From positions 1 to 64,000 of the IMG/VR virus record IMGVR_UViG_3300045988_137804: a stretch of DNA of 64,000 nt, one strand, 5' to 3'. The notes below the pieces were generated by a model. The model was not told the origin of the DNA and ran no database searches. It was given only the letters and a program-made list of their open reading frames with translations. A program made the translations under genes and the position numbers. This DNA is from a virus. Each line of letters starts with the position of its first letter. Within the stretch, counting starts at the first letter, position 1. This document shows, in pieces, positions 4,478 through 44,378 of the stretch.

Positions 4478-4561
4478 GGAACGTTGGAAGAAAAGGTTTG
4501 GAGAATATAAATATCAGATGCTTTTGGATTTTCATGAATGTGATAAAGTGAGGTGAGATAC

Positions 4562-5384: not shown

Positions 5385-6965
5385 ATGGTAAATGAGATTA
5401 TTAATGGACTTGGTGTTTTAGTTCCTGTAGTGATTGTAGGAGCAGGTGGAATTGGAATTGTTGGTTCTGGATATGTAAAAGCATCGCCAGATAAAGCCTA
5501 TATCATTTCTGGTTTAAGAAAAGATCCAAAAGTTCTTATTGGAAAAGCTGGGCTTAAGATTCCATTCTTTGAAAAGAAAGACGAGCTAAATCTTCAGTTA
5601 ATTCCAATTGATGTAAAAACATCAAGTGCAGTTCCAACAGCAGATTACATCAACATTAACGTTGATGCAGCAGTAAACGTAAAGGTAAGTAGCGACACAG
5701 AAAGACTTAAACTTGCAGCAGAGAACTTTCTTAATAAACCAACTGACTACATTGGACAGGTTGCAAGAGAAGTTCTTGAGGGTAATATGCGTGAGATTGT
5801 TGGCAAAATGAACTTGGAAGAAATGGTTTCCGATCGTCAGAAGTTTGCAGAACTCGTAAAAGAAAATGCCGAACCAGATCTTGCTGCAATGGGACTCGAC
5901 ATTGTGAGCTTCAATGTACAGAATTTTGTTGATGAAAATGGAGTAATTGAAAATCTTGGTGTTGACAACATTGTTAAAATTCAGAAAAATGCAGCTATTT
6001 CAAGAGCTGATAGCGAAAAAGAAATTGCCAAGGCTCGTGCTATGGCTAAAAAAGAAGCGAATGATGCAGAGGTAACTTCTGAATTGGAAATTGCAAATGC
6101 TCAGGCTGAAGCACAGAAGAAGAAAGCAATTGTACAGGCTAACGCAGATAGAGAGTCAAGAGAAGCTCAAATTGCAGCAGACACACTTATTGCACAGAAA
6201 GAAAATGAACTTGAAATTAAAAAAGCAGAACTTCAGAAAGATGCTGATACGAAAAAGGCTTCAGCAGATGCAGCTTATAGTATTCAGGAAGAAAATGAAA
6301 GAAAATCTGTGGAGATTGCTACGGCAGATGCTAATCTTGCTAAACAGGAAAAAGCTGTGGAGATTAAAGAGAAAGAGATTGCACTCACAGAAAAAACTCT
6401 TGAAGCTACTGTAAAGAAACAGGCTGAAGCAGAAAAATATGCAAAACAGCAGGAAGCAGATGCAAGACTGTATGAAACACAGAGAAAATCAGAAGCAAAT
6501 CTTTTTGAGAGACAGAAAAATGCTGAAGCAGAGAAGTTTGAACGTGAGAAAGAAGCTGAAGCTATGAAAGCAACAGCAGAAGCTAACAAATATGCTATGG
6601 AACAGGAAGCAGAAGGTATTCGTAGTAAAGGACAGGCTGAAGCCGATGCAATCAAAGCAAAAGCTCTTGCAGAAGCAGAAGGTATTCAGAAGAAAGCAGA
6701 AGCAATGAAACAGATGGGTGAAGCAGCAGTTCTTGATATGTATTTCAAAGCTATGCCAGAAATCGCCAAGAATATCGCAGAACCTCTTGCCAAAGTTGAC
6801 AAAATTACAATGTATGGAGATGGAAACTCTTCAAAATTGATGAAAGATATCATGAACACTCTTAATCAGGTTACAGATGGTATGAAAGAGTCAACTGGAA
6901 TCGACTTAAATTCTATTCTTGCAGGTTTTGCAGGTGCTAAAATTGCTGAATCTACAGACAAATAA
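5385..6965 (+). CDS. flotillin-like SPFH (band-7) domain protein
   Basis: N-terminal TM segment, an SPFH core (YIISGLRKDPKVLIGKAGLKIPFFEKKDELNLQLIPIDV...MGLDIVSFNVQNF), then a long A/E/K-rich coiled coil as in FloT/YqiK. Strong RBS AGAGGAGAAAG. Confidence 0.85.
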   Translation: MVNEIINGLGVLVPVVIVGAGGIGIVGSGYVKASPDKAYIISGLRKDPKVLIGKAGLKIPFFEKKDELNLQLIPIDVKTSSAVPTADYININVDAAVNVKVSSDTERLKLAAENFLNKPTDYIGQVAREVLEGNMREIVGKMNLEEMVSDRQKFAELVKENAEPDLAAMGLDIVSFNVQNFVDENGVIENLGVDNIVKIQKNAAISRADSEKEIAKARAMAKKEANDAEVTSELEIANAQAEAQKKKAIVQANADRESREAQIAADTLIAQKENELEIKKAELQKDADTKKASADAAYSIQEENERKSVEIATADANLAKQEKAVEIKEKEIALTEKTLEATVKKQAEAEKYAKQQEADARLYETQRKSEANLFERQKNAEAEKFEREKEAEAMKATAEANKYAMEQEAEGIRSKGQAEADAIKAKALAEAEGIQKKAEAMKQMGEAAVLDMYFKAMPEIAKNIAEPLAKVDKITMYGDGNSSKLMKDIMNTLNQVTDGMKESTGIDLNSILAGFAGAKIAESTDK

Positions 6966-7040
6966 TCTGTACATAGTTTAATTTTACACATTCCAACTTT
7001 GCATAGTGTCACAGCTATGCAGAGTATTTCTAAAAATAAT

Positions 7041-7535
7041 ATGAGAGGAAGTGATTGTGTGGTTAATTTAGAACCACGGATGATGCAAAAAGTACAAAAG
7101 TGTTTAGAAACACATGTTGGTGGTGAAGCATATTTTAATGAATTAGACGCTGCGATTAAATCAGATGAAAATCTTTTGAAGTCTTTCATTAATCGCATTG
7201 TCATAGAAACGAAGTGTCGCAACTTTGTAATGTCAGGTGAAATTGGTGTTGTATATTCTAAATTATATTCATACGATGACATTCATTTGTTGTTGCTGCC
7301 AGGTGGCTTGAGACACGATAAAGAAATTCCTTATGACATTGGGAGAATATATGAAGGAATGGAATTTGTATTCGTAGACGATTCATATTACTCAGGAAAA
7401 ACTTTGAATGCTGTGAAGAAATATATGGAATCTACTGGTGCAAAAATCATTGCAAATTATGTTTTCTACGATGGTAGCAGAGAAAATAAAGATAATGTGA
7501 GATCAATTTACAGATATTATGATCATCACGAATAA
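7041..7535 (+). CDS. phosphoribosyltransferase-like protein (start uncertain; GTG at 7059 also possible)
   Basis: PRPP-binding-type motif FVFVDDSYYSGKTL. Confidence 0.5.
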   Translation: MRGSDCVVNLEPRMMQKVQKCLETHVGGEAYFNELDAAIKSDENLLKSFINRIVIETKCRNFVMSGEIGVVYSKLYSYDDIHLLLLPGGLRHDKEIPYDIGRIYEGMEFVFVDDSYYSGKTLNAVKKYMESTGAKIIANYVFYDGSRENKDNVRSIYRYYDHHE

Positions 7536-7549
7536 GGAGAATAACATAT

Positions 7550-7747
7550 ATGGGAAGAAAATTCAGATGGTTGGATGCAATCAGGACAATGAATGTAAAT
7601 GATCTTGCACCATATTTAATAAAGGAATGTTTCAATTTTCATGATGGAACATGGTGGTCATCTCCAAGTGGTAATAAATTTGATTATCATGATGATGCTC
7701 TTGAAGATTGTATTCGGTGGTTAAATTCTAAATATGATGGGAGATAA
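7550..7747 (+). CDS. hypothetical protein
   Basis: AAGGAGAATA RBS, 65-aa ORF. Confidence 0.5.
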   Translation: MGRKFRWLDAIRTMNVNDLAPYLIKECFNFHDGTWWSSPSGNKFDYHDDALEDCIRWLNSKYDGR

Positions 7748-7755
7748 TAATTATT

Positions 7756-8127
7756 ATGGGATGGTATGAAGAGTACAAGACTGATGAATATATAAAAAGT
7801 CTCCAGTCTGTAGTAGAAGGATTAAAAACAAAAGATAAGACAATTAATTCACTACAAGAAGAGAATAATAGATTGAGAGATGAACATTACAAGGATGGAG
7901 AGTTAAAGAAATTGCAAGAAAAAATTGATAAGTTGCAAGGCGACTGTAATAGAGGATTTCCAATTAGTTTCAATGAGCAAGAAGTGATTGATGAATTTCG
8001 AGAAGAACACAAGAAGGAATGTCCTCATTGTAGCTTCAAATACATATTTGAGCCTTATTCGATTGTTGAGTTTGGATATCTAAAATGCAATGTTTGTGGT
8101 GAAGAAATAAAATTTGCAGAACGGTGA
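7756..8127 (+). CDS. hypothetical coiled-coil protein with C-terminal CxxC...CxxC zinc ribbon
   Basis: CPHC ... CNVC pair at the C-terminus. Heptad-like N-terminal half. Confidence 0.5.
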   Translation: MGWYEEYKTDEYIKSLQSVVEGLKTKDKTINSLQEENNRLRDEHYKDGELKKLQEKIDKLQGDCNRGFPISFNEQEVIDEFREEHKKECPHCSFKYIFEPYSIVEFGYLKCNVCGEEIKFAER

Positions 8128-8169
8128 TGGAGAATAAGTAATTAAAGGTTATAGAAAGGAGTTTGTGAA

Positions 8170-8592
8170 ATGAGATTTTCTGAAGCAATCGAACATCTTC
8201 TTAACGGAGAACGCATAAAGGAAGCGTGTTGGGAAAATGGTTATTACATCAAGCTGGAAAACGACAAAATTGTGGATTGTGATGGATCAGCAGAAGTGTT
8301 CGATAGTAAAGACATTATATCTAACGATTGGGAGCTATATCAGCCTAAATTAGATGTAGGTGCGGTTATTCAATACAATGACGGTACAATCGGAATTGTG
8401 CTTAGTTTATCTGAACTAGATAAGGAATACATCATTTTAGATGAGAATTGGTGCGTAGAAACAGTGAATGAAAGCCAGGTTTCATTAATCAATATTGACT
8501 ATGGAAAAGTTAGTTTGCATGAAGATTCTGCGAGTAAAAATCTCAAAAGTATAGTTTTATCATTACAGATGATTTCAGAGTTAGTAAATTAA
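8170..8592 (+). CDS. DUF2829-like protein (family that, to my recollection, includes the Thoeris anti-defence protein Tad2)
   Basis: N-terminus MRFSEAIEHLLNGERIKEACWENGYYIKL fits the remembered DUF2829 start (M.F.eAl.al..G..v.R..W). The C-terminal half is unassigned. Confidence 0.4.
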   Translation: MRFSEAIEHLLNGERIKEACWENGYYIKLENDKIVDCDGSAEVFDSKDIISNDWELYQPKLDVGAVIQYNDGTIGIVLSLSELDKEYIILDENWCVETVNESQVSLINIDYGKVSLHEDSASKNLKSIVLSLQMISELVN

Positions 8593-8666
8593 TGATTTTA
8601 TCCACTACGAAGTGGAGAATAAATAAGTATAAAGTTTAAGTTTCAAAGATTAAAGGAGAAAACATT

Positions 8667-9311
8667 ATGAGTACAATTGAGAAAATGAGTGTTCACAAAG
8701 CATTAGCAGAGTTAAAGATTATTGATTCCAGAATTGAGAGATCAATTGATGATGCACAGTTCTGTGTAGCAAACAAACATTCTAATGAAAAGATTAATGG
8801 TATTCCGGTTGAGGACGCTAAGAAGTTAATGGTTGGAAGTTACGACAAAGCATCAGATCTTATTAAGAGAAGAAATGCAATCAAGAGAGCAGTTGTGCTT
8901 TCTAATGCTAAGACAATTGTTACGATTGCAGACAGAGAATATACTGTTGCAGAAGCAATTGAGATGAAAAATCATGGCATTGAGTTTGAGGAATTTCTTT
9001 TAAATGAAATGAGATGTCAATACGCAGATGCTAATAGAACTATCTCAGCAGAGAATGGCGAAAAACTGAGTGAAAGAGCAGATAAATTTGTCATTGACAT
9101 GTATGGATCAAAAGAGGGTAAAACAAATACTGCTGATTTTGAGAAAGCAAAGAAAGATTTTATCACAGCAAATTCTTATGACTTGGTTGATCCACTTGAT
9201 ATCAAGAAGAAGATTGATGAATTGGAAGAATATATCTCAAACTTCAAGACAGAAGTAGATGCTGCATTAAGTGTTAGCAATGCTATTACAGAAACTACTG
9301 TAGAGTATTAG
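8667..9311 (+). CDS. hypothetical protein
   Basis: AAAGGAG RBS, 214-aa ORF, no motif recognised. Confidence 0.6.
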   Translation: MSTIEKMSVHKALAELKIIDSRIERSIDDAQFCVANKHSNEKINGIPVEDAKKLMVGSYDKASDLIKRRNAIKRAVVLSNAKTIVTIADREYTVAEAIEMKNHGIEFEEFLLNEMRCQYADANRTISAENGEKLSERADKFVIDMYGSKEGKTNTADFEKAKKDFITANSYDLVDPLDIKKKIDELEEYISNFKTEVDAALSVSNAITETTVEY

Positions 9312-9507
9312 AGAATATATAAATAGGAAATTATTTCACTGTTTGCTGAAAACTTAGAACTACAATCATTCAGACTTTTGCAAGTATAGCCTGAATCAAA
9401 ATAATAAAGAAGCTTGCAACATAATAAAACATAAAAAGCAAGTATAGCAAATTATTACAGGAATGCTTGATGCACAGTGTTGAGCGTTTATAAATTACAA
9501 GATGACT

Positions 9508-9744: not shown

Positions 9745-9833
9745 GGATCATTACATCAACTGGTAAGATGAGCTGCCTCATAAGCAGAAAGCCCTAATAA
9801 GGTATAAACTGGGTTCGACTCCCAGATGATCCA
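9745..9833 (+). tRNA. tRNA-like gene, anticodon CAU, unusually long (20-nt) variable region
   Basis: Acceptor GGATCAT/ATGATCC, D arm CATC-AACTGGTAA-GATG, anticodon loop CTCATAA, T arm CTGGG-TTCGACT-CCCAG. 89 nt, no encoded CCA. Confidence 0.55.
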
Positions 9834-9968
9834 CTGTATCTGAATATTCACAGAATGTGTTATTCGTTTCCTTTCTTTCTATGAACATTCTAGTTCAGAT
9901 ACAATGTTTTTCATAACTTCCTTTTGTTTGGTTGGCAACTTACCATATAGACAAAAAAGTTGCAATAA

Positions 9969-10039
9969 TGGGCTGTGGTGTAATGGTAGCACATAATACT
10001 TTGACTATTATAGATCCAGTTCAAATCTGGACAGCCTAG
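9969..10039 (+). tRNA. tRNA-Gln (UUG)
   Basis: Canonical cloverleaf: TGGGCTG/CAGCCTA acceptor with U1-A72 as in bacterial tRNA-Gln, anticodon arm TAATA-CTTTGAC-TATTA, T arm TCCAG-TTCAAAT-CTGGA. Confidence 0.85.
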
Positions 10040-10124
10040 CTTGTGAGATTTTGGAACGTCTCACAAATATTACTCCTTTCATGGGTTATTTATAGTGCAA
10101 AAGATGTGCAGAAATGCACATCGA

Positions 10125-10210
10125 GCTGGCATGGCGGAATTGGTAGACGCAATGGACTTAAAATCCATCGGTAAAAACACACCATACGAGTTCGAGTCTC
10201 GTTGCCAGTA
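10125..10210 (+). tRNA. tRNA-Leu (UAA)
   Basis: Type II tRNA: D arm GCGGAATTGGTAGACGC, anticodon arm ATGGA-CTTAAAA-TCCAT, long variable arm, T arm ACGAG-TTCGAGT-CTCGT. An 8-bp GAAA-tetraloop hairpin (10103-10122) lies immediately upstream. Confidence 0.8.
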
Positions 10211-10367
10211 TTAGCCATATGAGACACTTATTCCCTGAGCAAGAATGATGAAGTCGGTACAAAAGTGCTCAATTTCTGTATTTTACATTCGTGTGTTATG
10301 CAAGCAGCACGAATGACATATGGCATTAACCCCCAACATAGGGTATTTACATTTTACAAAAATGGTT

Positions 10368-10437
10368 TGGCTGTTAGTTCAGTGGGAAGAACATCTATTG
10401 CAAGAGAGGGTCACAGGTTCGAGTCCTGTACAGTCAA
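10368..10437 (+). tRNA. tRNA-like gene with a non-canonical anticodon arm (possible GCA/Cys)
   Basis: Good acceptor (TGGCTGT/ACAGTCA), D arm (GTTC-AGTGGGAA-GAAC) and T arm (ACAGG-TTCGAGT-CCTGT). The anticodon region folds only as a 3-bp stem TCT/AGA with an 8-nt loop ATTGCAAG. Confidence 0.4.
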
Positions 10438-10505
10438 CTTGACGCAGAAAACATTTGATTTTTGCATTCATGTTTTGCACGCCTCATTTCTTCAATGTGC
10501 AAAGT

Positions 10506-24940: not shown

Positions 24941-25747
24941 ATGATTAAAATTTCATGTAAAGAATACGCAGCCAATCTAAAAGAAGAACTAAAAGAGTTA
25001 TGCGAAAAATCACCAAGACAGCGTTGCCTTACAGTGGTTCAGATTGGGAATGATGCAGCAAGTAACTCTTATGTAAATGGCAAAAGAAAAGATTGTGAGT
25101 ATGTTGGGATCAAGTTCAATCATGTACATATTACAGATTATGAAAATCTTGACGAATCAGATCTATGCCAAATTATTAAAGAACTTGATAAATCAGAGGA
25201 AGTAGATGGAATCATCATCCAGCTTCCTATTCCAGACAAATACAATGTAAAAATATTGCAGCAGTTCATTAGTCCAGAAAAAGATGTTGATGGTTTCAGA
25301 AAGGATTCGCTTTACAATCCATGCACTCCGCAAGGAATTATTGATTGGCTCGAAGCTAATGACATTGATTTAAGAGGTAAGTTAATAACTGTATTAGGAA
25401 GAAGTGAGATAGTAGGTAAGCCACTTGTAAACATGTTGATTGATAATGGTGCAACAGTTATTAATTGCAACAGCAAAACACCAGAGAATAAAATAAAGTA
25501 TTTTACTAGAATGTCAGATATTGTTGTTTCTGCAATTGGTAAACCACTTAAGTTAGATTGGATTTATTTTGATGATTATACAATTATTGTAGATGTTGGA
25601 ATCAATAGAGATAAGGACGGTAAGTTATGTGGAGATGTAAATACGAAAGACTTTGATAAATTCTTTTCATCTAATTATGTAACACCTGTTCCGGGTGGTG
25701 TTGGTCTGTTAACAAGGGTTACATTGCTGAAAAATGTGATGAGATAA
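24941..25747 (+). CDS. folD: bifunctional methylenetetrahydrofolate dehydrogenase/cyclohydrolase
   Basis: YVNGKRKDCEYVGI, IIIQLPIP, GRSEIVGKPL, TPVPGGVGLLT. Confidence 0.85.
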   Translation: MIKISCKEYAANLKEELKELCEKSPRQRCLTVVQIGNDAASNSYVNGKRKDCEYVGIKFNHVHITDYENLDESDLCQIIKELDKSEEVDGIIIQLPIPDKYNVKILQQFISPEKDVDGFRKDSLYNPCTPQGIIDWLEANDIDLRGKLITVLGRSEIVGKPLVNMLIDNGATVINCNSKTPENKIKYFTRMSDIVVSAIGKPLKLDWIYFDDYTIIVDVGINRDKDGKLCGDVNTKDFDKFFSSNYVTPVPGGVGLLTRVTLLKNVMR

Positions 25748-32385: not shown

Positions 32386-35300
32386 ATGGTAAGAGTTATT
32401 AAAAGAGATTGCTCTGAAGTTGATTTTGATAAGAATAAAATTTCAACGGCAATCTTAAAGGCTATGAAAAATGGTAGCGGAATTGTTAAACCCAAAATTG
32501 CGGAATCTATTGCAGATGAGATTGAAAAGGAATGTAAGGATCGAGAAGAGATTGATATTTCTGAAATTGAAGCAATGGTATTTGACAAGCTGATTACCAA
32601 AAAACAGAGACTTACTGCAAGAGCATATGAAGGTTATAGAAGTACAAGAGAATTCCAGAGAGAGAATGAGAATACTGTTGACGAGGAAATTCTTGGAATT
32701 GTAGAAGCAAACAACGAAGAATGGAAAGATGAAAATGCGAATAAAAATCCAGCATTAAACCCTACAATTCGTGATTATATTGCTGGATCTGTAAGTAAAG
32801 ACGCAACAAAAAGATTTTTATTATCTCCAGAAATTATTCAGAGTCATTTAGAAGGAATTATTCATTTCCATGATTCAGATTACTTTATTCAACATATGCA
32901 TAACTGCGGATTAGTAAATCTTGAAGATATGCTTCAGAATGGTACTGTTATTAGTGAAACAATGATTGAAAAGCCACATAGTTTTTCTACAGCATGTACC
33001 GTGACTACTCAGATCATTGCTCAAGTTGCATCTAGTCAGTATGGTGGACAGAGTATCTCACTTGCACATCTGGCACCGTTTGTGGATGTTTCCAGAGAGA
33101 AGATCCGTAAGGAAGTGATCAGCGAGCAGGAACTGGTCGGAATGGAATATCCGGAAGATGTGCTCAATGAGATCGTAGAGAGAAGACTGAAAAAAGAGAT
33201 TACAAAAGGTGTTCAAACAATTCAGTACCAGTTAATCACACTTATGACAACAAATGGGCAAGCACCGTTCATCACAATTTTTATGTATCTGAATGAAGCA
33301 AAGAATGAGAGAGAAAAGAAAGACCTAGCGATGTTAATTGAAGAAATGTTACTTCAGAGAAAACTTGGTGTGAAAAATGAAGATGGTGTTTATATTGCAC
33401 CAGCATTTCCAAAACTCATTTATGTTCTTGAGGATGACAATTGTAACGAATCAACAGAATATTGGTATTTAACAGAACTTGCTGCCGAATGCACGTCAAA
33501 AAGATTAGTTCCAGATTACATCTCTGAAAAAGTAATGAAAGAACTTAAAGGTGATGTGTATACATGCATGGGATGTGTTGATGGAAAAGAACTTGTTACA
33601 TATACATATAACAATAATCTTTACGTTGAATCATTTGAAAGAATGTGGAATAGACTTTCTGATAGATTTGAAATAAAACATCAGTATAATGACAACAACC
33701 CAAATCTATATATGGATTTGAGCGATGTAGAAATCTATGACACAGACAAAGGATTTGTTAATACAGAGAGAATAATCAGAAATATATCAACCTCTTGGCT
33801 TGATGTTAATTTTTCCAACGGAAGAAGATTACTTTGTACAGAAGATCACCCACTTACATTAAGAGATGGAAGAACAATCCATGCATCTGAATTAAAATTA
33901 AAGGATAGAATTCTCATTAATTCACATCAGTATAATGAAGAAAATATTGTATTCAATGAAGACAAGGCGTGGTTGTTAGGTTTTATGCTTTGTGATGGAT
34001 GTTATCAAGGCTCTTTATTTTCTTCAATTGCAGCAGAAAATGAAGATGAAATTGCAGATAAGTTTTCAGAAACAATGAAGAAATATTTTGATCTCGATAT
34101 TGAAAAAAAATTACAGCAAAGAGGTAAGAAAGGAACATATTACGATTTGATTGCACATAGTCAGAATGAAAAAATATCTGTGTATTGTAATTATTTCGCT
34201 AAAAAATTCGAAGGTCTGAATAAGATTGATAGACATGTTCCTAATGAAGTATTTTCATGGAATTATTCGTCAAAACTTGCTTTCCTGGCAGGAATGATTG
34301 ATGCAGATGGGTACATTAATAGTTCTCAGAATAAAGGATTTTCTATAGTTCAAATTGGTTCTACAAACAAAGAACTTGCATTACAACAAATGGCACTTGC
34401 ACAGTCTTTAGGTATGCCAGCAAAGCTGTACCATAACCATTACAGTAAACGTAACCCAGAATTGATTAGATACAGAGTTGAGTTTTATCCAACAGATGAA
34501 CTAATTAATTATATTGTATGTAAAAAGAAATATGATAATTATATTGATTCAAATGTATCTAGTTATAATCATGAATCTGAAGTTACTGAAATCAACAAAA
34601 TTAATAAAAAAATGTTTTCTTACGATGTAACAACAACAAGTGAGCATTTTGAAATTAGCGGAATCTATAGTCATAATTGTAGGTCTTTTTTAACTGTTGA
34701 TAGATTTTCTGATAAAGTTGGAAACATTTCTAACGCTAAAAACTTTAATGGAAAACATAAATATTACGGAAGATTTAATCAGGGTGTTGTTACAATTAAT
34801 CTTCCAGATATTGCATTTTCATCTGATGGCGACATGGATAAGTTTTGGGGAATTTTCGAAGAAAGAACAGAATTATGCCATAAGGCTTTAAAGGCTAGAC
34901 ATAACCGTTTGCTTAAAACTTCTTCTGATATTGCACCAATCCTGTGGCAGAACGGAGCATATGCAAGACTTAAAAAACATGAACCAATTGACAAACTTTT
35001 ATTTGATGGATATTCAACGATTTCTCTTGGATATGCAGGACTTTATGAGTGTGTGAAATATATGACAGGAAAATCCCATACAGATGGTGATGTAGGAGAA
35101 AAGTTTGGATTGGAAGTAATGCAAGCATTAAATGATAAATGTAATCAGTGGAAAGAAGCTGAAAACATTGATTATAGTTTGTATGGCAGCCCAATCGAAA
35201 GCACTACGTATAAATTTGCAAAGTGCTTAAAAAATAGATTCGGTGATGATATTTTTATTAAACTTGATGGATTTGATAGAAATTATATTACAAATAGTTA

Positions 35301-35730
35301 TCACGTTCCTGTGTTTGAAAGAATTACAGCATTTGACAAATTTAAAATTGAATCAAAATTCCAAAACCTTAGTCCAGGAGGCGCAATTTCGTATTGTGAA
35401 ATCCCATCAATTAACGTAAATATTCCAGCATTATTGGAAGTAATTAAATTTATTTATGACAATATTATGTACGCAGAAATCAATACAAAAGATTGTTATT
35501 GCGAAGTGTGTGGATACGATGGAGACATTCCACTTATTGACGATGATAACGGTAAACTTGTATGGGAATGCCCTAATTGTGGCAACACAGATAATACAAA
35601 AATGGACATCGCATTTAGAGTTTGTGGTTATGTTGGTACTGCAAAAAATGGTGGAAACCAAGGAAGATATGGAGATATCCACGATAGAGTTTACCACATC
35701 GATGACTTTGAATACGAGGAAAATGAATAA
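32386..35730 (+). CDS. nrdD: anaerobic ribonucleoside-triphosphate reductase (class III), interrupted by an intein
   Basis: ATP-cone start VIKRDCSEVDFDKNKI, conserved MGC|RSFL site split by the intein, C-terminal zinc site CxxC...CPNC and glycyl-radical motif RVCGYVG. Confidence 0.9.
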   Translation: MVRVIKRDCSEVDFDKNKISTAILKAMKNGSGIVKPKIAESIADEIEKECKDREEIDISEIEAMVFDKLITKKQRLTARAYEGYRSTREFQRENENTVDEEILGIVEANNEEWKDENANKNPALNPTIRDYIAGSVSKDATKRFLLSPEIIQSHLEGIIHFHDSDYFIQHMHNCGLVNLEDMLQNGTVISETMIEKPHSFSTACTVTTQIIAQVASSQYGGQSISLAHLAPFVDVSREKIRKEVISEQELVGMEYPEDVLNEIVERRLKKEITKGVQTIQYQLITLMTTNGQAPFITIFMYLNEAKNEREKKDLAMLIEEMLLQRKLGVKNEDGVYIAPAFPKLIYVLEDDNCNESTEYWYLTELAAECTSKRLVPDYISEKVMKELKGDVYTCMGCVDGKELVTYTYNNNLYVESFERMWNRLSDRFEIKHQYNDNNPNLYMDLSDVEIYDTDKGFVNTERIIRNISTSWLDVNFSNGRRLLCTEDHPLTLRDGRTIHASELKLKDRILINSHQYNEENIVFNEDKAWLLGFMLCDGCYQGSLFSSIAAENEDEIADKFSETMKKYFDLDIEKKLQQRGKKGTYYDLIAHSQNEKISVYCNYFAKKFEGLNKIDRHVPNEVFSWNYSSKLAFLAGMIDADGYINSSQNKGFSIVQIGSTNKELALQQMALAQSLGMPAKLYHNHYSKRNPELIRYRVEFYPTDELINYIVCKKKYDNYIDSNVSSYNHESEVTEINKINKKMFSYDVTTTSEHFEISGIYSHNCRSFLTVDRFSDKVGNISNAKNFNGKHKYYGRFNQGVVTINLPDIAFSSDGDMDKFWGIFEERTELCHKALKARHNRLLKTSSDIAPILWQNGAYARLKKHEPIDKLLFDGYSTISLGYAGLYECVKYMTGKSHTDGDVGEKFGLEVMQALNDKCNQWKEAENIDYSLYGSPIESTTYKFAKCLKNRFGDDIFIKLDGFDRNYITNSYHVPVFERITAFDKFKIESKFQNLSPGGAISYCEIPSINVNIPALLEVIKFIYDNIMYAEINTKDCYCEVCGYDGDIPLIDDDNGKLVWECPNCGNTDNTKMDIAFRVCGYVGTAKNGGNQGRYGDIHDRVYHIDDFEYEENE
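33574..34677 (+). mobile_element. 368-aa intein with a LAGLIDADG homing endonuclease inside nrdD
   Basis: Starts at Cys (CVDGKELVT) right after YTCMG. Block B TEDHP. Two LAGLIDADG motifs (LLGFMLCDGC, LAGMIDADGYI). Ends ...IYSHN followed by the +1 Cys of CRSFL. Confidence 0.85.
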
Positions 35731-37719: not shown

Positions 37720-38203
37720 TAAAGTTAGTTTTGAACAGTTTAAAAAAGATTGGATTGATACATTTGGAGATGTAACAGAAGATAAGATTAAAGAGGTTTA
37801 TGATAACATTAAATTGCCAAAAAGAGCTACTGCAATGTCAGCAGGTCATGATATAAGCATTCCATTTGATACAAGTATTAAGAATGGCGAGGTTGTAAAA
37901 ATTCCTACCGGAATTCGATGCAAAATGGATGATGGATATGTAATGTTTGTGTTCCCCCGAAGTAGCATGGGAATTAAAAAAGGAATGGTAATTTGTAATA
38001 CTATTCCTGTAATTGATGGAGATTATTTTGGAGCAGATAACGAAGGTCATATCTTTATTTGTGTCACAAATACATACAAAAAATCAATAGAATTAAATTC
38101 TGGGGATAATATTGTACAGGCAGTTTTCACTAAATTTGGTGTAGCAGATGACGAAAAAATTACAGAAAAACGATTGGGAGGAGTTGGTAGCACTGGATTA
38201 TAA
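37697..38203 (+). CDS. dut: dUTP diphosphatase (trimeric dUTPase)
   Basis: Motifs SAGHDI, PRSSMGIKKG, IDGDYFG and RLGGVGSTG. Confidence 0.85.
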   Translation: MQRIAKFSKVSFEQFKKDWIDTFGDVTEDKIKEVYDNIKLPKRATAMSAGHDISIPFDTSIKNGEVVKIPTGIRCKMDDGYVMFVFPRSSMGIKKGMVICNTIPVIDGDYFGADNEGHIFICVTNTYKKSIELNSGDNIVQAVFTKFGVADDEKITEKRLGGVGSTGL

Positions 38204-38855
38204 ACCTATAGATTTTGACGAATCAAAAGAAGTATGGAAATTATGTGATGATTATCCTGGCAATTATATTAGTAATTATGGAAGAGTTAAAAGGGATTCT
38301 TATACATATCATTATAAAAATGGAAAAATAAAAAATTACAAGCCTATAATAAAAAAATTAACTGAAACTAGCAAAAGGAAAGGTACAATTCAAGGGTATT
38401 TATGTACTCGAATGATTGGTTCTGATGGAAATAGTAAATGTGAAATGGGTCATAGGCTTGTAGCAAAAGCTTTTATTCCTAACCCAAATAACCTACCTAC
38501 AGTAAATCATAAAAATGGCAATAAACATGATAACCGAGTAGAAAATTTAGAATGGACTTCTTATTCTGACAACAATCAACATGCATACGCAAATGGCTTA
38601 AAAGGCGATAATGTTATAATGCTACAAGTTGACCAAGATAATTATATCAAACAAATATATTTTTCTGAAGAATATGCAGCGTTATGTAATTGTTTATCTA
38701 CGAAAAACATTAGAAATAGTTCTGAGAAAAATACGTTAGATTATTATAATAATAAATGGATTAGATTTTATCCAAACAAATACAAAATTACAGTAGACGA
38801 CAACGCAACGGAAGTTCGCAATGGTGGTTTCGGATCTACAACAAAATCTAAATAA
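38148..38855 (+). mobile_element. HNH homing endonuclease (NUMOD4-like N-terminus plus HNH_3 core)
   Basis: WKLCDDYPGNYISNYGRVKR, then HRLVAKAFIPNP...VNHKNGNKHDNRVENLEW. The ATG overlaps the dut 3' end by 56 nt, so the start is uncertain. Confidence 0.8.
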
Positions 38856-38871
38856 ACACATGTAATAATTA

Positions 38872-38899
38872 TTGACAGGAATGCATAGTGTGGTAAAAT
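38872..38899 (+). promoter_or_regulatory. near-consensus sigma-A promoter (TTGACA, 16 nt, TGnTAAAAT)
   Basis: TTGACA at 38872-77, extended -10 TGGTAAAAT at 38891-99. The 10-bp inverted repeat AGGAATGCAT / ATGCATTCCT (38877-86 / 38911-20) straddles it. Confidence 0.65.
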
Positions 38900-38905
38900 G
38901 ATACT

Positions 38906-39240
38906 AACAAATGCATTCCTCTATGTCCCTATGCAATCCAAATTTGCATTTTTTCATCAAAATTGTGTAAATTATTTTTGCACTTTTGTCGAGCGTCAAA
39001 TAAACGAAATAGTTTACAAAATAGACATAGAAGGTAGTGTTTTTGGGAAAATCTAAGAAAATGGTTTTAGTACCCAATTTTTGCTCTATGTCGAGTTCGA
39101 AAAATGGCTTAAAATAAGGCTTTTTTGAGGGTCAAAATCCTAATGAAATACCAATTTCATTCGAACTCAAAATCCACATTAAAAAGTAAAAATAAAGGGT
39201 ACTAGACTTAGCAAATTGCTGGTTTAGTACCCTTTTATAA
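38906..39240 (+). ncRNA. putative ~330-nt structured leader or non-coding RNA (promoter to terminator)
   Basis: No credible ORF. Bounded by the promoter at 38872 and the terminator at 39194-39240. Several strong helices and repeated GGTTT(T)AGTACCC segments. Confidence 0.4.
39194..39240 (+). terminator. intrinsic terminator (long hairpin plus T-tract)
   Basis: AAAGGGTACTA (39194-204) pairs perfectly with TAGTACCCTTT (39225-35). The helix extends through most of the intervening 20 nt. Followed by TTTTAT. Confidence 0.6.
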
Positions 39241-39299
39241 AACGCAAAAATTATTTGCCCCAAAAGTGCAAAATTAGATTACACAATGACATAGAGAAT

Positions 39300-39442
39300 T
39301 TCCCAAAAACGATTTTTGGGAAGAAGATGAAAATGCCGATAAAGCCCGTGGTTGACACGTTTTCTCTTTCCCAAAAATTTTCCCAAAAATGAAGAAAAAG
39401 TTCCCAAAAACGATTTTTGGGGAAAATAGCCATTTTTGGGAA
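39300..39442. promoter_or_regulatory. array of TTCCCAAAAA sites including two 23-bp palindromes
   Basis: TTCCCAAAAA-CGA-TTTTTGGGAA at 39300-22 and 39401-23 (one mismatch). Half-sites at 39368, 39380 and 39433, plus 39040. They flank a TTGACA at 39352-57 upstream of the tns operon. Confidence 0.6.
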
Positions 39443-39518
39443 GCTTTATTCTTACACATGAATGCATTTGTTATTCATCAAAAACTGTATAAACATACAG
39501 ATGAAAGGAGCAAATGCT

Positions 39519-39863
39519 ATGCAGAAAAAGAATTACAAAGGTCGCTGCGAGAAATTAACAGTGCCAAAATCTAAGGATGTCTGCCATATCTATAATGACA
39601 TCCAAAAGTCTTATCTATTACAACTTCAGGACGATCCAAACATCAAAGAGATAAAATGTAATGTCCTTATGCTTGGATTGGAACTTGGAGAATTCACATC
39701 TGATTTTCAGTGTGTTACAGCAGACAACAATCTAATAGTGCGTGAATGTATCTCACGAGATGCTATCGCCAAACCAATGACAGCAAAACGATTAGATGCT
39801 TCAAGAGAGTATTGGTTTCGTCATGGCATAACAGATTGGGGGATTGTAACCGATGAAAAATAA
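39519..39863 (+). CDS. tnsA: short TnsA-like protein (endonuclease N-terminal-domain-like, 114 aa)
   Basis: AAAGGAG RBS. LQDDPNIKEI...GEFTSDFQCV...LIVRECIS...REYWFRHGITDWGIVTDE resembles the TnsA core (..YTPDF.V....EVK....E.yW...g..w.ivte). The expected E and K positions do not look conserved. Confidence 0.45.
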   Translation: MQKKNYKGRCEKLTVPKSKDVCHIYNDIQKSYLLQLQDDPNIKEIKCNVLMLGLELGEFTSDFQCVTADNNLIVRECISRDAIAKPMTAKRLDASREYWFRHGITDWGIVTDEK

Positions 39864-41661
39864 GAGTCTATTTTATAATCCAAAAACCAAAGAAATATTT
39901 CGTGTGTTAGACAGTAAAGGTTCAAAAGTTCTTATCATTAATTGCACAAAGAAACAGATGCCTTATTGGACAGAATTCGATTCAATTTCTTCCTGTCGTT
40001 TAATCACAGAAGATGAATTACAGGACATGACTGGCACACATTTTCAAGAACTAACTGTACCATCAAAAGAATACAGATATGTTCAAGAAAGGTTTTCACT
40101 GATTTCAAATATCATTCCTATCATCGGAAATAAAAGCAAGCGTACTCAGATGATACGAATCATATCTGAAACAAATAATTGCAGTAAACAAACAATCAAA
40201 AACATCTTGTGCCAGTATCTCATCTATCAAAATATTTCTGCATTAGCACCGCAAAAGAGCAATGAAAAAGAACTAACAACAGATGAGAAAAACATGCGTT
40301 GGGCATTAAATAAGTTCTTCTATACAAAGAATAAGAATTCATTATCAACCGCTTACGTCATGATGCTTAAAGAAAAATATACAGATGAATACAACAACTT
40401 ATTACCACACCCAACCATTCATCAGTTCCGTTATTTCTATCGCAAAACAAAAAAGATGGAAACGTATTATATCTCAAGAGATGGCATAAAAGATTACCAA
40501 AGAAATCACAGACCATTGCTAGGAGAAGGAATTAGAACAGTTGCAAATAGCATTGGAACAGCTATGTTGGATTATACAATCTGTGATATTTATCTCGTAA
40601 ACGATAAACAAGAATTAATTGGTCGTCCATTAATGACAGCTTGCATTGATGTCTACAGCGGATTGTGTTGTGGTTACTCATTAACATGGGAAGGTGGAAT
40701 GTACAGTTTGCGTTCTTTGATGTTAAATGTGGTCACTAATAAGAAAGAACATTGTAGAAAGTTTGGAATAAATATCGAAGAATCCGACTGGAATTGTCAT
40801 CAATTACCTGCAACATTAATCACAGATAAAGGTTCAGAATATGCGTCAGAAAACTTTGAACAACTTACAGATTTAGGAGTGTCTATTATAAATCTACCAG
40901 CCTATAGACCAGAGTTAAAAGGATCAGTTGAAAAGTTTTTTGATATGATTCAATCACTTTATAAGCCACAGTTACTAGGAAAAGGTGTCATAGAATCTGA
41001 TTTCCAGGAACGTGGCTCACATGATTATAGAAGAGATGCTTGTCTAACATTAGAACAATTTGAAAAAATAATTCTTCGTTGCATCATCTATTATAATACA
41101 CAGAGAATTATCAAAAATTCACCACTGATTGAACAAAATATTCCGCCACATTCTTGTGACATATGGAACTATTATTTGACCTATAATGATGACTTTTTGA
41201 TAAGAATATCGCCACAGAATCTACTTTTATGTTTGCTACCAAGAACGAAAGGAGTGTTTAAAAGAAATGGTTTAAACGTCAATAGTCTCCGCTATAAGCA
41301 TAAAACATACACCGAAATGTATCTTGTAGGAGGAGATGTAACAGTAGCCTACAATCCAGAAGATGTTTCTTACATTTGGCTCATTGAAGAAAATGGAACG
41401 TATGTAAAATTTGAATTAATCAATTCTCAGTTCTATGGAAAGGATTTATCATTTGTAGAAAAATATATGGAGTCATCTAAGAAGCTAATTGCAGAAAATA
41501 CCGATGATAATTTACGAGCAAAAGTTACGCTTTCAAAAGATATAGATTTTGTAATTTCTGAAAGTGTACGTTCTAATGTAAGCACAAAAAATATCCGCAA
41601 GAATCGTCAGAAAGAACAGGAACTTACTCATAGAGATTTCGTAAAGGAGTATGAATTATGA
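39853..41661 (+). CDS. tnsB: TnsB/MuA-family DDE transposase
   Basis: DDE candidates in MLDYTICDIYLV, LITDKGSEYAS and RPELKGSVEKFF. 602 aa. Overlaps tnsA-like by 11 nt. Confidence 0.8.
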   Translation: MKNKSLFYNPKTKEIFRVLDSKGSKVLIINCTKKQMPYWTEFDSISSCRLITEDELQDMTGTHFQELTVPSKEYRYVQERFSLISNIIPIIGNKSKRTQMIRIISETNNCSKQTIKNILCQYLIYQNISALAPQKSNEKELTTDEKNMRWALNKFFYTKNKNSLSTAYVMMLKEKYTDEYNNLLPHPTIHQFRYFYRKTKKMETYYISRDGIKDYQRNHRPLLGEGIRTVANSIGTAMLDYTICDIYLVNDKQELIGRPLMTACIDVYSGLCCGYSLTWEGGMYSLRSLMLNVVTNKKEHCRKFGINIEESDWNCHQLPATLITDKGSEYASENFEQLTDLGVSIINLPAYRPELKGSVEKFFDMIQSLYKPQLLGKGVIESDFQERGSHDYRRDACLTLEQFEKIILRCIIYYNTQRIIKNSPLIEQNIPPHSCDIWNYYLTYNDDFLIRISPQNLLLCLLPRTKGVFKRNGLNVNSLRYKHKTYTEMYLVGGDVTVAYNPEDVSYIWLIEENGTYVKFELINSQFYGKDLSFVEKYMESSKKLIAENTDDNLRAKVTLSKDIDFVISESVRSNVSTKNIRKNRQKEQELTHRDFVKEYEL

Positions 41662-42917
41662 TTAATATGAATAAAGTAATCAAAGAACTTCCTGATATGC
41701 TGTCCGGAAATGAACTTCAGAAAGCAATGTCTATTATTCCAAAATACGACAAACAGATTCAGGAAGATGGAAGTATGACCGAAAGACTTTTGAAATTATC
41801 TGACCTTTATAGCATTTATATTCCATCACAAATGTCTACTGAAATTTATAGCAAACTATATCTTGGAATCATTCGTTCTATGCAGAAAAAAGGAAACAAG
41901 TTAACTGTACAACAATTCAATTCAACTTATAGAACGATGCAGAATATTAAGAATAAAACTGGCAATCAGCAATATGATGGAATCATAGGTGGATCAGATT
42001 CATTTACAATTATTGGTGCAAGTGGGATAGGAAAATCATCAGCTATTTCTCGTGCATTGAATCTGATTGAAGCAAATCATGTAATAGAAATTGAACAGCC
42101 TTACACTAAAATACTTCCATGCTTAACAGTGCAATGTCCATTCGATTCTTCTGTAAAAGGATTATTACTTGAAATTCTTCGCAAAGTTGATGAGCAGTTA
42201 GGAACAGATTATGCACAAACAAAAAGGTTCACGACTGATATGCTTATAGGTGCTGTTAGTCAGGTGTGTTTAAATCATATTGGCTTGCTTGTTGTAGACG
42301 AAATACAGAACGTAGTTAATTCAAAGAACGGCAAGAACTTAATCGGATCATTGACGCAGCTAATCAACAATTCAGGCATTAGCATCTGCATGGTTGGAAC
42401 ACCAGATAGTGAAATATTCTTTGAACAGGCTATGCAATTAGCTCGTAGAAGTGTCGGATTAAAATACACAGCTTTGCCATACGATGAACATTTTTGCGAA
42501 GTATGTGAATGCTTATTTTCTTACCAATATGTAAAAAATATCACATATATAAATAGCACGACTATAGAATGGTTGTATCAACACAGTGCAGGAGTTATCT
42601 CTATTGTTGTATCATTAATTCATGATGCACAAGAGATTGCAATCTTAAATGGGAGAGAAGTATTAGATATTAAATCGTTAGACGAAGCATACAACAATAG
42701 ACTTTCTATGTTGCACGATTATATTAGACCTACTATGAGAAAGAAATCTATCGGCAATAATAAAATAAAGAAACAAAATATCATTACAACTTTGTCGATA
42801 AAAAATAGCGCAGATATTCAAACAGATTTAATACAAAGTCTTGCGAAAGAATGTAAGAAAGATGGAACAGATATTGTAGAAATACTGAGTCAACATATTA
42901 CAATTGAGGTGATTTAA
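41658..42917 (+). CDS. tnsC: TnsC/TniB-type AAA+ transposition ATPase
   Basis: Walker A IIGASGIGKSSAI, Walker B LLVVDEIQN. ATGA overlap with tnsB. Confidence 0.8.
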   Translation: MINMNKVIKELPDMLSGNELQKAMSIIPKYDKQIQEDGSMTERLLKLSDLYSIYIPSQMSTEIYSKLYLGIIRSMQKKGNKLTVQQFNSTYRTMQNIKNKTGNQQYDGIIGGSDSFTIIGASGIGKSSAISRALNLIEANHVIEIEQPYTKILPCLTVQCPFDSSVKGLLLEILRKVDEQLGTDYAQTKRFTTDMLIGAVSQVCLNHIGLLVVDEIQNVVNSKNGKNLIGSLTQLINNSGISICMVGTPDSEIFFEQAMQLARRSVGLKYTALPYDEHFCEVCECLFSYQYVKNITYINSTTIEWLYQHSAGVISIVVSLIHDAQEIAILNGREVLDIKSLDEAYNNRLSMLHDYIRPTMRKKSIGNNKIKKQNIITTLSIKNSADIQTDLIQSLAKECKKDGTDIVEILSQHITIEVI

Positions 42918-44318
42918 ATGATTGGATTTATGCCTAAATTATATCCAGATGAATTAGTGTATAGTTGGATTGCTAGGTATCATGTAAGAACTGGACATTA
43001 TAGTTATCAGCAAACAGCAAAACATCTACTAGATAAGAAAGCAAATATTGTCTCGAAAAAGTTTTTAAACGAATACTCAAATGAATTTTTTAACATCATC
43101 AAAAAGAATATTCCAATAAAAGAGTTAGTAATAAATCATAGTATGCTGTCAGCTTATATTAAATTTTTGCCAAAAGATAAGCGCAATAATCTAATAGAAT
43201 CCTATGAAAACAATTTAAGATATAAAGAGTCATCAATTGGATTTAAGACAAGAAGTAATGGTATTAGTATGCGATATTGTCCTATATGTGTAAAGGAAGA
43301 TCGAGAAAAATATGGAGAAACTTACTGGCACAGAGAACATCAATTTGTTGGAATTAATGTATGCACAAAGCATAAATGTTATCTTATAGATTCCAAAATG
43401 TCTGTAAAAAGTATTGATAAGTCTGAGTTTTATACCGCAGAATATGTCATAGAACAACATGATGATGTTAAGATTTCCAATAATGAGTATGAGATAAAGT
43501 TTGCCAAGTATTTTACAGAAGTCATAAATACAGAGTCAAATAATGACTCAAATATTGTGGAATATCTCAATACTATATTATTGAACTCAAAGTATAGAGC
43601 AAATGGATGTATGCTAAAAGATTTTAATAAATTGTACGATGATTATTCTGAATTATGCGAAAAGATTAATGTAAATATAATTTCTTCACAACCATCGTTA
43701 AGAGAGATATTAAAAAATAAACGCAGAACATTGGATATTTGTATCCTTGGAATGCTATTGAATATTTCGCCTTACGATCTCGTGAATAGAGTATTGCCAA
43801 ATACAAACAAAGAGGATATCAGAGAGCAAGTCATATTTTTAAGAGATGTAAAAAAGATGAGTTATAATCGTATTGCAAAAGAATTAAACGCAAGTAGAAG
43901 AGCAGTTGGTACAATATATCATAGTAAAAAAACTGAAAATGATTTAGATGTTCTTAAACTTCTTAAAGATGAACTGCCAAAATTCTATAATGGAGATTTA
44001 ACTAATGGAAGACCGCAAAAAATAACAGTATACACAGTTGAAAAACAATTTGATATTCCACAAAAAGTATTAATAAATAATAAATCCTATTATAACGAAA
44101 TAATCAAGTATGAAGAGTCTTATCCTGAATATTGGGCGAGAGAATTAGTATGGTCTTATAATAAACTAAAGGAAGATAAAGCATATATAAGTCAAAATAA
44201 AATAACCAAACAAATAAATATTCGTAAGGAGCAACCTGTAAAAGCTATACCATACATCTCTAAATATACAGACAAAGAAACTGCTGAAGCTATTAAATCA
44301 TTATTGCAAAAATCGTAA
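42918..44318 (+). CDS. tniQ: TniQ/TnsD-family target-selection protein with C-terminal HTH
   Basis: N-terminal LYPDELVYSWIARYHVRTGH, zinc module RYCPICVKED...HREHQFVGINVCTKHKCYL, and a later HTH-like MSYNRIAKELNASRRAVGTIY. Starts immediately after the tnsC stop. Confidence 0.8.
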   Translation: MIGFMPKLYPDELVYSWIARYHVRTGHYSYQQTAKHLLDKKANIVSKKFLNEYSNEFFNIIKKNIPIKELVINHSMLSAYIKFLPKDKRNNLIESYENNLRYKESSIGFKTRSNGISMRYCPICVKEDREKYGETYWHREHQFVGINVCTKHKCYLIDSKMSVKSIDKSEFYTAEYVIEQHDDVKISNNEYEIKFAKYFTEVINTESNNDSNIVEYLNTILLNSKYRANGCMLKDFNKLYDDYSELCEKINVNIISSQPSLREILKNKRRTLDICILGMLLNISPYDLVNRVLPNTNKEDIREQVIFLRDVKKMSYNRIAKELNASRRAVGTIYHSKKTENDLDVLKLLKDELPKFYNGDLTNGRPQKITVYTVEKQFDIPQKVLINNKSYYNEIIKYEESYPEYWARELVWSYNKLKEDKAYISQNKITKQINIRKEQPVKAIPYISKYTDKETAEAIKSLLQKS

Positions 44319-44324
44319 AAAAAT

Positions 44325-44360
44325 GGGGAATAGAAGAGTATTAAATCTCAACTATTCCCC
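44325..44360. terminator. hairpin terminator shared by convergent tniQ and the endolysin gene
   Basis: GGGGAATAG (44325-33) / CTATTCCCC (44352-60). The T-tract (ATTTTTTT) is on the minus-strand side, so it fits best as the endolysin terminator. Confidence 0.6.
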
Positions 44361-44378
44361 ATAATTAATTATAGAAAA

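Follow-up and report, generated by a model that had tools for sequence, protein, structure and literature searches.

Prototypic Tn7 (TnsABC plus TnsD) inserts at attTn7, downstream of glmS, and Mu-like phages enter the chromosome with a DDE transposase and an AAA+ partner (MuA and MuB) that are homologous to TnsB and TnsC. Benler et al. (2021) found no Tn7-like transposase homologues in any viral genome (PMC8649781), and no description of phage lysogeny by Tn7-type machinery turned up in a full-text literature search, in a 2023 survey of target selectors or in a 2024 review. Here we analyse positions 1 to 64,000 of the IMG/VR record IMGVR_UViG_3300045988_137804, a 64-kb stretch that we call the window, in which four overlapping plus-strand open reading frames (ORFs; 39519-44318), designated tnsA', tnsB, tnsC and tniQ, lie just downstream of a 368-bp mini-transposon. 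A preliminary description, made from the sequence alone, had found the four genes and had called such a module undescribed in phages of a virulent type, a statement to which the literature search offered no exception; it missed both the mobile element, which sits in the seemingly 'intergenic' stretch 38856-39518, and the temperate nature of the phage. We propose, with a probability of about 0.68, that a large temperate phage uses this segment as its module for lysogenic integration, that the module is built of Tn7-family parts arranged inside out, and that the prophage is a cointegrate.

The module resembles prototypic Tn7 in having homologues of TnsB, TnsC and TnsD, in its TGT...ACA ends with repeated subterminal sites and a 5-bp target duplication, in orientation-specific insertion tens of nucleotides past the 3' end of a conserved gene, and in that the integrated tnsA adjoins the gene-proximal end. 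Unlike in Tn7, the genes of the phage module lie outside the mobile unit, which is only 368 bp, and the 'cargo' is the donor backbone, that is, the whole phage, rather than DNA between the ends. In addition, TnsA' is a domain of 114 amino acids (aa) without the catalytic Glu and Lys, and there is no TnsE. Judged by sequence and hallmarks, we assign the module to the Tn7 family, minus two features of an autonomous transposon, namely genes between the ends and a catalytic TnsA. The four genes are the following.

39519-39863, plus strand: tnsA', 114 aa, homologue of the N-terminal PD-(D/E)XK domain of TnsA only
39853-41661, plus strand: tnsB, 602 aa, DDE transposase
41658-42917, plus strand: tnsC, 419 aa, AAA+ regulator with Walker A GASGIGKS and Walker B VVDE
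42918-44318, plus strand: tniQ, tnsD-like target selector, 466 aa

The identities given in the preliminary description held up in profile searches, which place TnsB, TnsC and TniQ directly in Tn7 families and the TnsA-like protein by way of a 35-member family profile. TnsB matches the Pfam family Mu-transpos_C (1.5e-7), its closest relative of solved structure is TnsB of prototypic Tn7 (1.1e-37), and its DDE triad is intact, with all three residues aligned to those in the IDAT, ADRGE and KGIVES motifs of Tn7 TnsB. Similarly, TnsC matches AAA_22 (9e-14) and TniB (6e-13) and has Tn7 TnsC as its closest solved relative (1e-18), while TniQ matches Pfam TniQ (6e-21), is closest among solved structures to Tn7 TnsD (1.8e-9), and combines a zinc domain (residues 5-156) with a C-terminal helix-turn-helix (HTH; residues ~297-335). 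The hallmarks of a Tn7-like system are therefore present in the form of a DDE TnsB with a Mu-transposase C-terminal domain, an adjacent TnsC/TniB and a TniQ/TnsD selector. As a single sequence, TnsA' falls below threshold against PF08722 (E = 0.094); the profile of its 35 family members matches Tn7 TnsA (1F1Z, N-terminal domain) with E = 1.9e-4, and 27 of the 35 members match PF08722. Similarly short proteins of the TnsA' type form ~420 clusters. The tnsA' start at 39519 has the support of a ribosome-binding site; the mechanical alternative is a 133-aa ORF from 39462.

Besides short overlapping ORFs, the four tns genes are the only ORFs of at least 50 aa in the cassette, and it consequently holds no cas gene, no tnsE and no resolvase gene, as the preliminary description had stated. 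It has no CRISPR-like array, only a 12-nt repeat in two copies. Ten other window proteins from the early region were scanned and gave no match to a recombinase or repressor, and TniR with res of the Tn5053/Tn402 type was absent from the cassette and from these ten proteins.

The mini-transposon has the following parts.

38924-39291, no strand: mini-transposon, 368 bp, termini 5'-TGTCC...TGACA-3', just upstream of tnsA'
38924-38988, plus strand: E1 arm, terminal inverted repeat with two spaced TnsB-site-like repeats (38929-38953 and 38964-38988)
38989-39236, no strand: interior, conserved and strongly structured
39237-39291, minus strand: E2 arm, terminal inverted repeat in which the two TnsB-site-like repeats are contiguous; the terminus faces tnsA'

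The termini are of the TGT...ACA type and point outward from the 368-bp segment. Within the 64 kb, the motif TGTGTAANNWAWTTTTGCAC is found with 0 mismatches only at 38964 (plus strand) and 39266 (minus strand), where the chance expectation is 0.79 even if up to three mismatches are allowed, and the arm motif TGTGTAAnnnAnTTTTGCAC(TTTTG) is present in two copies per arm and nowhere else. Comparison by eye added the second repeat of each arm (38929-38953 and 39237-39260) and showed that the terminal 30 nt of the two arms match at 22 of 30 positions. Imperfect terminal inverted repeats with TGT/ACA and multiple subterminal repeats are the end structure of Tn7-like elements, and the arm repeats are putative TnsB sites. 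No further end-like site was found in the 64 kb, so the tns genes are not placed between ends but outside the sole pair of transposon ends, with E2 upstream of tnsA'. For the same reason we rejected the idea that the phage in its entirety is a canonical Tn7-like transposon whose left end is distal; in the free form, the sequence left of E1 has no inverted-repeat partner. The possibility that the repeat pair at 38.9-39.3 kb is the circle junction of abutting ends was ruled out because the termini face outward. The mini-element is best read, from this arrangement, as the mobile unit and functional 'attP'.

The mobility of the mini-element and its junctions were studied by comparison, throughout with short-read metagenome assemblies; copies were found through a Joint Genome Institute (JGI) metagenome scan for the E2 arm and through look-ups of contigs encoding neighbouring proteins. 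Ten copies were recovered, each exactly 368 nt, and homology between the window and contigs with bacterial flanks is lost exactly at the TGT at 38924. Solo copies, which contain no genes, lie within a bacterial radical-SAM gene with AAGGT on both sides (L019) and, in two samples (L021 and L022), ~30 nt past the stop of a 512-aa polysaccharide-deacetylase gene with ACACA flanks. The empty site is seen in L023, which reads ...GGCACCACACACGGTGTC... and has a convergent ABC-F gene 67 nt away. Comparison with relatives, which the preliminary description had put forward as the way to define the ends, accordingly places them at 38924 and 39291 and yields 5-bp target-site duplications, ACACA in L021 and L022 and AAGGT in L019. 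Such 5-bp duplications and the targeting of a gene's 3' end are typical of Tn7. The deacetylase/ABC-F locus is represented by five contigs (L001, L020, L021, L022 and L040), four of which have E1 beside the deacetylase gene, and sites outside this locus also occur (L019 and L045). As in Tn7-like systems, there is a dedicated site downstream of a conserved gene with one orientation in these four of five contigs; binding of this site by TniQ is putative.

We find that the phage is joined to the bacterial chromosome through the mini-element, with junctions at both termini. On the left, a 287,853-bp scaffold (L001) carries genes for an NTP-transferase, an epimerase, RecQ and SulP up to the deacetylase gene, then GGCACAACACA followed directly by TGTCGC..., which is the same left junction as that of the solo copies; past the mini-element, it continues into tnsA'BCQ, lysin and tail fibre. 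Similarly, a contig from another data set (L020) runs from the deacetylase gene through the mini-element, which has 0/368 mismatches to the window copy, and ends at tnsA. On the right, L040 runs from dUTPase through HNH and the mini-element to the ABC-F/patatin side of the deacetylase locus, and L045, a contig of the same phage that matches L040 with 99.93% identity over 11,145 nt, diverges from it exactly at the E2 terminus into a different flank. Free forms, with the order HNH, mini-element and tnsA, are continuous across the module in the window, L006, L034 and L035.

The positions at which assemblies break are also informative. Seven Logan contigs (k = 31) start ~30 nt before the E2 terminus, L003-L005, L008, L009 and L011 at 30 nt and L007 at 36 nt, and for a contig from MEGAHIT k141 (L002) the distance to this terminus is 141 nt. 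The first bases of L010 are exactly the E1 TGT, L036 ends 54 nt into E1, and the IMG/VR contigs L076 (which has a genome-type numeric identifier) and L084 start 53-55 nt inside E2, as they would if the mini-element is repeated. Breaks k-1 nt inside the element fit a repeat that is bounded by E1 and E2. An invertible segment was considered as the source of the recurrent breaks and was dropped, since the repeat-boundary model predicts the k-1 offsets (k = 31, ~55 and 141).

The slot occupied by the cassette holds a tyrosine-integrase module in near-isogenic phages. A sister phage with the same HNH protein (L042) has the order HNH, Xis-like HTH_17 protein, tyrosine integrase and lysin. On the lysis side it shares 95% identity with the Tn7-type phage L003, and on the replication side 90% with L006. 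The left limit of the swap is set by the end of homology to L042 ~34 nt past the HNH stop, and the right limit by a hairpin segment of 82-87 nt at the tniQ/lysin boundary that is 97-98% identical in L042; in window coordinates, the swapped cassette covers ~38889-44300. Near-isogenic phages thus directly exchange Int/Xis and Tn7-type modules. Int-type relatives occur as integrated prophages, with HNH and HTH_17 joined to bacterial genes (L026, L027, L037-L039, L043 and L044). The premise of a lytic-looking, virulent-type phage in the preliminary description was therefore wrong: sisters with Int/Xis occur as prophages, and this phage type itself is joined to bacterial DNA. The int/attP slot is filled, and the phage-chromosome junctions at E1 and E2 are those of a temperate integration module. 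Like tyrosine-integrase/Xis modules, the cassette has the end of the replication block on one side and the lysin on the other, and it apparently has the same site-specific prophage as its outcome. Unlike in those modules, its Tn7-type chemistry is unrelated, its attP is not a core site but a transposon, integration would duplicate 368 bp plus 5 bp, and excision would scar attB. In both L003 (7567-7965) and L042 (15451-15849), an ORF of 132 aa that is placed between lysis cassette and tail-fibre genes weakly matches Phage_integrase; it may be an integrase remnant or a small recombinase such as a fibre invertase.

If TnsA' were a cut-and-paste nuclease, it should have the catalytic E-D-K triad and the C-terminal domain of TnsA, and it has neither in full. 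In the profile alignment with Tn7 TnsA, numbered as in the 1F1Z structure work, E63 of Tn7 is matched by Q29, D114 by the invariant D62, Q130 by E76, and K132 by I78, a position at which most members have V; the C-terminal domain of Tn7 TnsA is absent. TnsA' is thus presumably nuclease-dead, and we infer a replicative (cointegrate) chemistry. After infection, the phage genome would circularise, and TniQ, which is TnsD-like with its C-terminal HTH, would bind the chromosomal attachment site at the 3' end of the polysaccharide-deacetylase gene. TnsC would link TniQ to TnsB bound on both mini-element arms, and TnsB would join the mini-element's 3' ends to a target with a 5-bp stagger ~30 nt past the stop codon. 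Because TnsA' is without two catalytic residues and the C-terminal domain, the 5' strands would stay uncut and the Shapiro intermediate would be replicated. The resulting cointegrate would itself be the prophage, in the order chromosome, mini-element, tnsA'BCQ, lysis/tail genes, and on to replication genes, HNH, mini-element and chromosome. Recombination between the two direct 368-bp copies would probably be the route of excision; it would free the circular phage and leave a solo mini-element with its 5-bp duplication.

The proposed order of chromosome, mini-element, tnsA'BCQ, phage, mini-element and chromosome fits all junction types, and solo copies at the attachment site are the expected remnant of resolution or prophage excision. 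In TnsA-inactive Tn7-like elements, the Shapiro intermediate is replicated to give a cointegrate, which a resolvase or host recombination then resolves so that donor and target each keep one copy (PMC11406308, a review); the mini-element shows the same pattern. Of the uses proposed in the preliminary description, domesticated machinery for insertion into host DNA comes closest, with the amendment that what is inserted appears to be the phage itself.

The chemistry expected here, with 3'-end-only transfer, replication and a cointegrate, is shared with catalytic mutants of Tn7 TnsA, CRISPR-associated transposons (CAST) of type V-K and Tn5053/Tn402. In those systems, the cointegrate is an intermediate or a by-product that is resolved by TniR/res or the host, whereas the phage cointegrate would be the selected end product of a cassette that has no resolvase, cas12k or CRISPR array. 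The cas effector genes and array that a CAST carries within the element are absent from the phage cassette. The likeness to Mu-like phages lies in the use of a DDE transposase and AAA+ partner for chromosome entry. The ends of Mu are its genome termini, it integrates near-randomly, it replicates by transposition and it packages host flanks; in contrast, the ends in the window phage are internal and 368 bp apart, integration would be site-specific via TniQ, and a replisome is encoded by the phage itself (DNA polymerase, helicase and ligase, with NrdDG and ThyX). The continuity of the free-form contigs across the module likewise separates it from a Mu-like phage.

Several observations weigh against this interpretation. 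TnsA' may still have some nuclease activity, given that D62 and E76 are retained and purifying selection acts on it, and its single-sequence structure model is poor (predicted local distance difference test score, pLDDT, 42), with the element order alpha-beta-beta-beta-alpha-beta. The cassette holds no resolvase or other dedicated excision function that we could find, and there is no repressor among the window proteins scanned. No examined contig bears both junctions of one prophage, so that identical 5-bp duplications on the two outer flanks of one lysogen are only predicted, and individual misjoins are possible because short-read assemblies must cross the 368-bp repeat. The left flank of L020 (about 1956-1960; ...GGCACCAAAA directly before E1, that is, CCAAAA) differs from the canonical ...ACACA. 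The right flank of L045 (11145-11160), where E2 is followed by TAAAAGTGTC, and the flank of L020 may be the two sides of a variant site in another strain, with a ?AAAA duplication and a one-base mismatch. Finally, the right junction of L040 (11145-12070) is not clean: E2 runs directly into a 119-nt 3' fragment of another mini-element, which begins TCCAC... and has a second terminus at 11263, and a Gp49/HTH_37 pair of toxin-antitoxin-like genes comes next, before ABC-F. The partial copy suggests insertion into an earlier copy, and the arrangement suggests serial insertions at the site with incomplete target immunity. The Tn7 family shows target immunity, with which re-insertion at an occupied site sits awkwardly.

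The main rival to a replicative cointegrate is a two-step route, which we consider unlikely. The machinery, with an active TnsA' or another nuclease, would insert only the 368-bp mini-element, and the phage would then enter by homologous recombination. The end structure, a prophage with two flanking copies, would be identical, solo copies are present at the attachment site, and TnsA' is conserved with D62 and E76 retained. However, cut-and-paste would open a double-strand gap in the donor phage genome, and TnsA' is without equivalents of K132 and E63 and without the C-terminal domain that contacts TnsC in Tn7, where the C-terminal domain of TnsC contacts TnsA (PMC11406308). Moreover, the phage-linked copy in L040 is nested in a resident copy, with E2 directly followed by TCCAC..., and homologous recombination alone cannot yield such nesting.

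We find it very improbable that the phage never integrates, in which case the junction contigs would be chimeras formed via the 368-bp repeat and the module would plant mini-elements in host DNA for a purpose such as terminator or RNA delivery, site marking or occupation, or competitor exclusion. The mini-element does have a strong hairpin and a structured interior, the junction evidence comes entirely from short-read assemblies, and solo copies together with free phage in one sample would give the same graph branches. The hybrid contigs are, however, independent and come from different studies and assemblers (L001, L020, L040, L045 and eight similar places). In addition, L001 runs ~238 kb past the junction on the phage side and the largest related viral contig is 222 kb, so host DNA must flank both sides. 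The phage otherwise has no integration function, and its sisters are temperate.

That a selfish Tn7-like element rides the phage as a vehicle with no role in lysogeny, the first reading in the preliminary description, is likewise very improbable, even with Tn7-like elements widespread in related bacterial chromosomes (55-60% TnsB identity, Roseburia and others) and a relative (L013) in a non-phage mobilisable island, since the tns genes lie outside the only pair of ends and cannot move themselves, the cassette fills the exact Int/Xis slot of near-isogenic phages, and the module is syntenic over a clade with backbone proteins at just 30-45% identity and is under strong purifying selection in all four genes. 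The further reading in that description, a TniQ that homes to a phage locus, found no support, because the recurrent target is a bacterial chromosomal site.

All four tns genes are under strong purifying selection: among close phages, the ratio of nonsynonymous to synonymous substitutions (dN/dS) is 0.04-0.24 over the four genes, with dS up to 0.75, and is 0.06-0.24 for tnsA', 0.06-0.14 for tnsB and 0.04-0.09 for tnsC. Of the four, tniQ evolves fastest: it is 83-89% identical when close phages are compared and 25-35% identical over the wider clade (versus ~50% for TnsB), and to be the most diverged is expected of a target selector that tracks different hosts. A single-protein search of phage GenBank records and IMG/VR gave nothing closer than TniA in Acinetobacter contigs (22-24% identity). 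When IMG/VR was scanned with an alignment, 46 viral contigs of at most 222 kb came up, and their TnsB is 48-58% identical, apart from one partial match at 67%. In most of the IMG/VR loci that reach the flanks, NrdD, NrdG, the counterpart of the 249-aa protein (p249) and dUTPase lie upstream of tnsA'BCQ, and 15 loci have a lysin match downstream. Backbone proteins across the clade of tns-bearing phages are only 27-50% identical. With a threshold of 21/30 matching terminal bases, TGT...ACA mini-elements of 251 bp or ~458-471 bp were detected in 10 of the IMG/VR loci, 189-231 nt upstream of tnsA', and a TTTTTGGGGA-type motif lies between mini-element and tnsA'. By these comparisons, the module is old, syntenic across a deep phage clade and common in uncultivated large gut phages. 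We give somewhat better than even odds to the broader proposal that, in a clade of large gut phages (contigs of ~100-220 kb), the integrase has been replaced by an inside-out, protein-guided Tn7-type system in which a mini-element of 250-470 bp is the attP, a nuclease-dead TnsA remnant enforces replicative transposition, and the site-specific cointegrate is the prophage.

TnsB relatives of 55-60% identity occur in Roseburia and other bacterial genomes. In a Ruminococcus metagenome-assembled genome (L013), a TnsB relative of 51% identity has the same layout, with a 229-bp TGT...ACA mini-element at 9214-9442, TTCCCAAAAA motifs and a 115-aa tnsA'. Positions 1-9000 of this contig hold MmeI-type restriction-modification, PHP/Schlafen, AAA-ATPase/PD-(D/E)XK and NikA-like mobilisation genes, and the locus is a non-phage mobilisable island. 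The inside-out layout therefore belongs to the family and not to the window phage alone, and non-phage elements may use the same integration strategy.

The remaining features of the module are noncoding and lie around the mini-element and the genes.

38856-38923, plus strand: phage flank from the HNH stop codon to the mini-element; left boundary of the cassette at ~38889
39299-39424, no strand: control region with two 24-bp palindromes TTCCCAAAAACGATTTTTGGGAA at 39299-39322 and 39401-39424
44319-44378, no strand: hairpin in the gap between tniQ and the convergent endolysin gene; stem 44325-44333 / 44352-44360

Within 38856-44378, a 663-nt stretch without a credible gene precedes the four tns genes. 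A predicted promoter (TTGACA-16-TAAAAT, 38872-38899, with 11/12 positions matching) points into the mini-element. Inside the mini-element, a hairpin followed by a T-run (~39203-39243; GGGTACTAGAC...GGTTTAGTACCC, then TTTTAT) was read from the sequence and a fold, and was not listed by the terminator scan. The whole 368-nt element folds at -106.7 kcal/mol (z = -9.9), in part owing to its terminal repeats. Across the ten copies, the interior is variable at 41 of 248 positions with zero indels, and it carries a repeated GGTTT(T)AGTACCC motif. An Rfam search gave no family for the noncoding stretch (best E = 0.028, below the gathering score), and we rejected a known RNA there; the interior could be an insulating terminator, a small RNA, a host-factor site or a resolution site. 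The control region also holds tandem half-sites TTTCCCAAAAAT at 39367-39390 and a TTGACA hexamer at ~39352, and from these motifs it is the probable operator and promoter of the tns operon. A TTCCCAAAAA / TTTTTGGGGAA motif is found at the same position in relatives with ~50% TnsB identity (L013 and the IMG/VR loci). The hairpin between tniQ and endolysin is read, from its placement, as a shared terminator.

The cassette lies between a plus-strand replication/nucleotide block and a minus-strand lysis/tail block, and both this location and a replisome of the phage's own had been recognised in the preliminary description. On its 5' side, on the plus strand, are genes for NrdD (with an intein), NrdG, a 249-aa protein, dUTPase and an HNH homing endonuclease, and farther 5' those for DNA polymerase, DnaB-like and Dda-like helicases, a RecJ-like exonuclease, ligase, ThyX and four tRNAs. 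On its 3' side, convergent genes encode an amidase/choline-binding endolysin and tail fibres. Related contigs span 105-222 kb. The hosts are probably Lachnospiraceae or other Clostridia, as hinted by a cluster member named from 'Lachnospiraceae bacterium SGI.054' and by Mediterraneibacter-like relatives of the deacetylase (~55% identity).

Other features of the window were noted in passing. The anaerobic ribonucleotide reductase NrdD (32386-35730, 1114 aa) has an intein with a LAGLIDADG homing endonuclease, and NrdD in relatives is either split or free of the intein (717-734 aa); the replication block of related phages is dotted with HNH and NUMOD homing endonucleases. The HNH/NUMOD4 homing-endonuclease gene at 38148-38855 overlaps the 3' end of the dUTPase gene and is variably present in relatives (absent in L017), which accounts for extra assembly breaks just left of the cassette. 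Four tRNA genes in the early region (9745-10438) comprise Met, Gln, Leu and one with an odd anticodon loop. A sigma-70-like factor (2250-2819), an SPFH/flotillin-like protein (5385-6965) and a FolD-type methylene-tetrahydrofolate dehydrogenase/cyclohydrolase (24941-25747) are auxiliary functions typical of large phages. At the start of the window, a perfect 55-nt inverted repeat (1-55 and 184-238, with a 128-nt spacer) overlaps a C5-cytosine methylase ORF (168-1679) at its start; it has the look of an assembly artefact at the contig end, though it may be a hairpin terminus.

The module overturns the 2021 statement that viruses have no Tn7-like transposases (PMC8649781), and it explains the 'integrase-less' look of these phages, which are likely to be scored as virulent. 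If the proposed reading is true, it adds a third route to lysogeny, beside site-specific recombinases and random transposition of the Mu type, in which targeted replicative transposition of a tiny element pulls a whole viral replicon into the chromosome, and we predict that 368-bp scars are footprints of past lysogeny. CAST engineering treats the cointegrate as a defect; here, nature appears to have selected the cointegrate as the product. The phage would then provide a natural machine that places payloads of at least 100 kb at a defined chromosomal site without CRISPR or a recombinase, and compact TnsA'BC-TniQ sets with minimal ends may serve for the insertion of very large DNA at defined sites.

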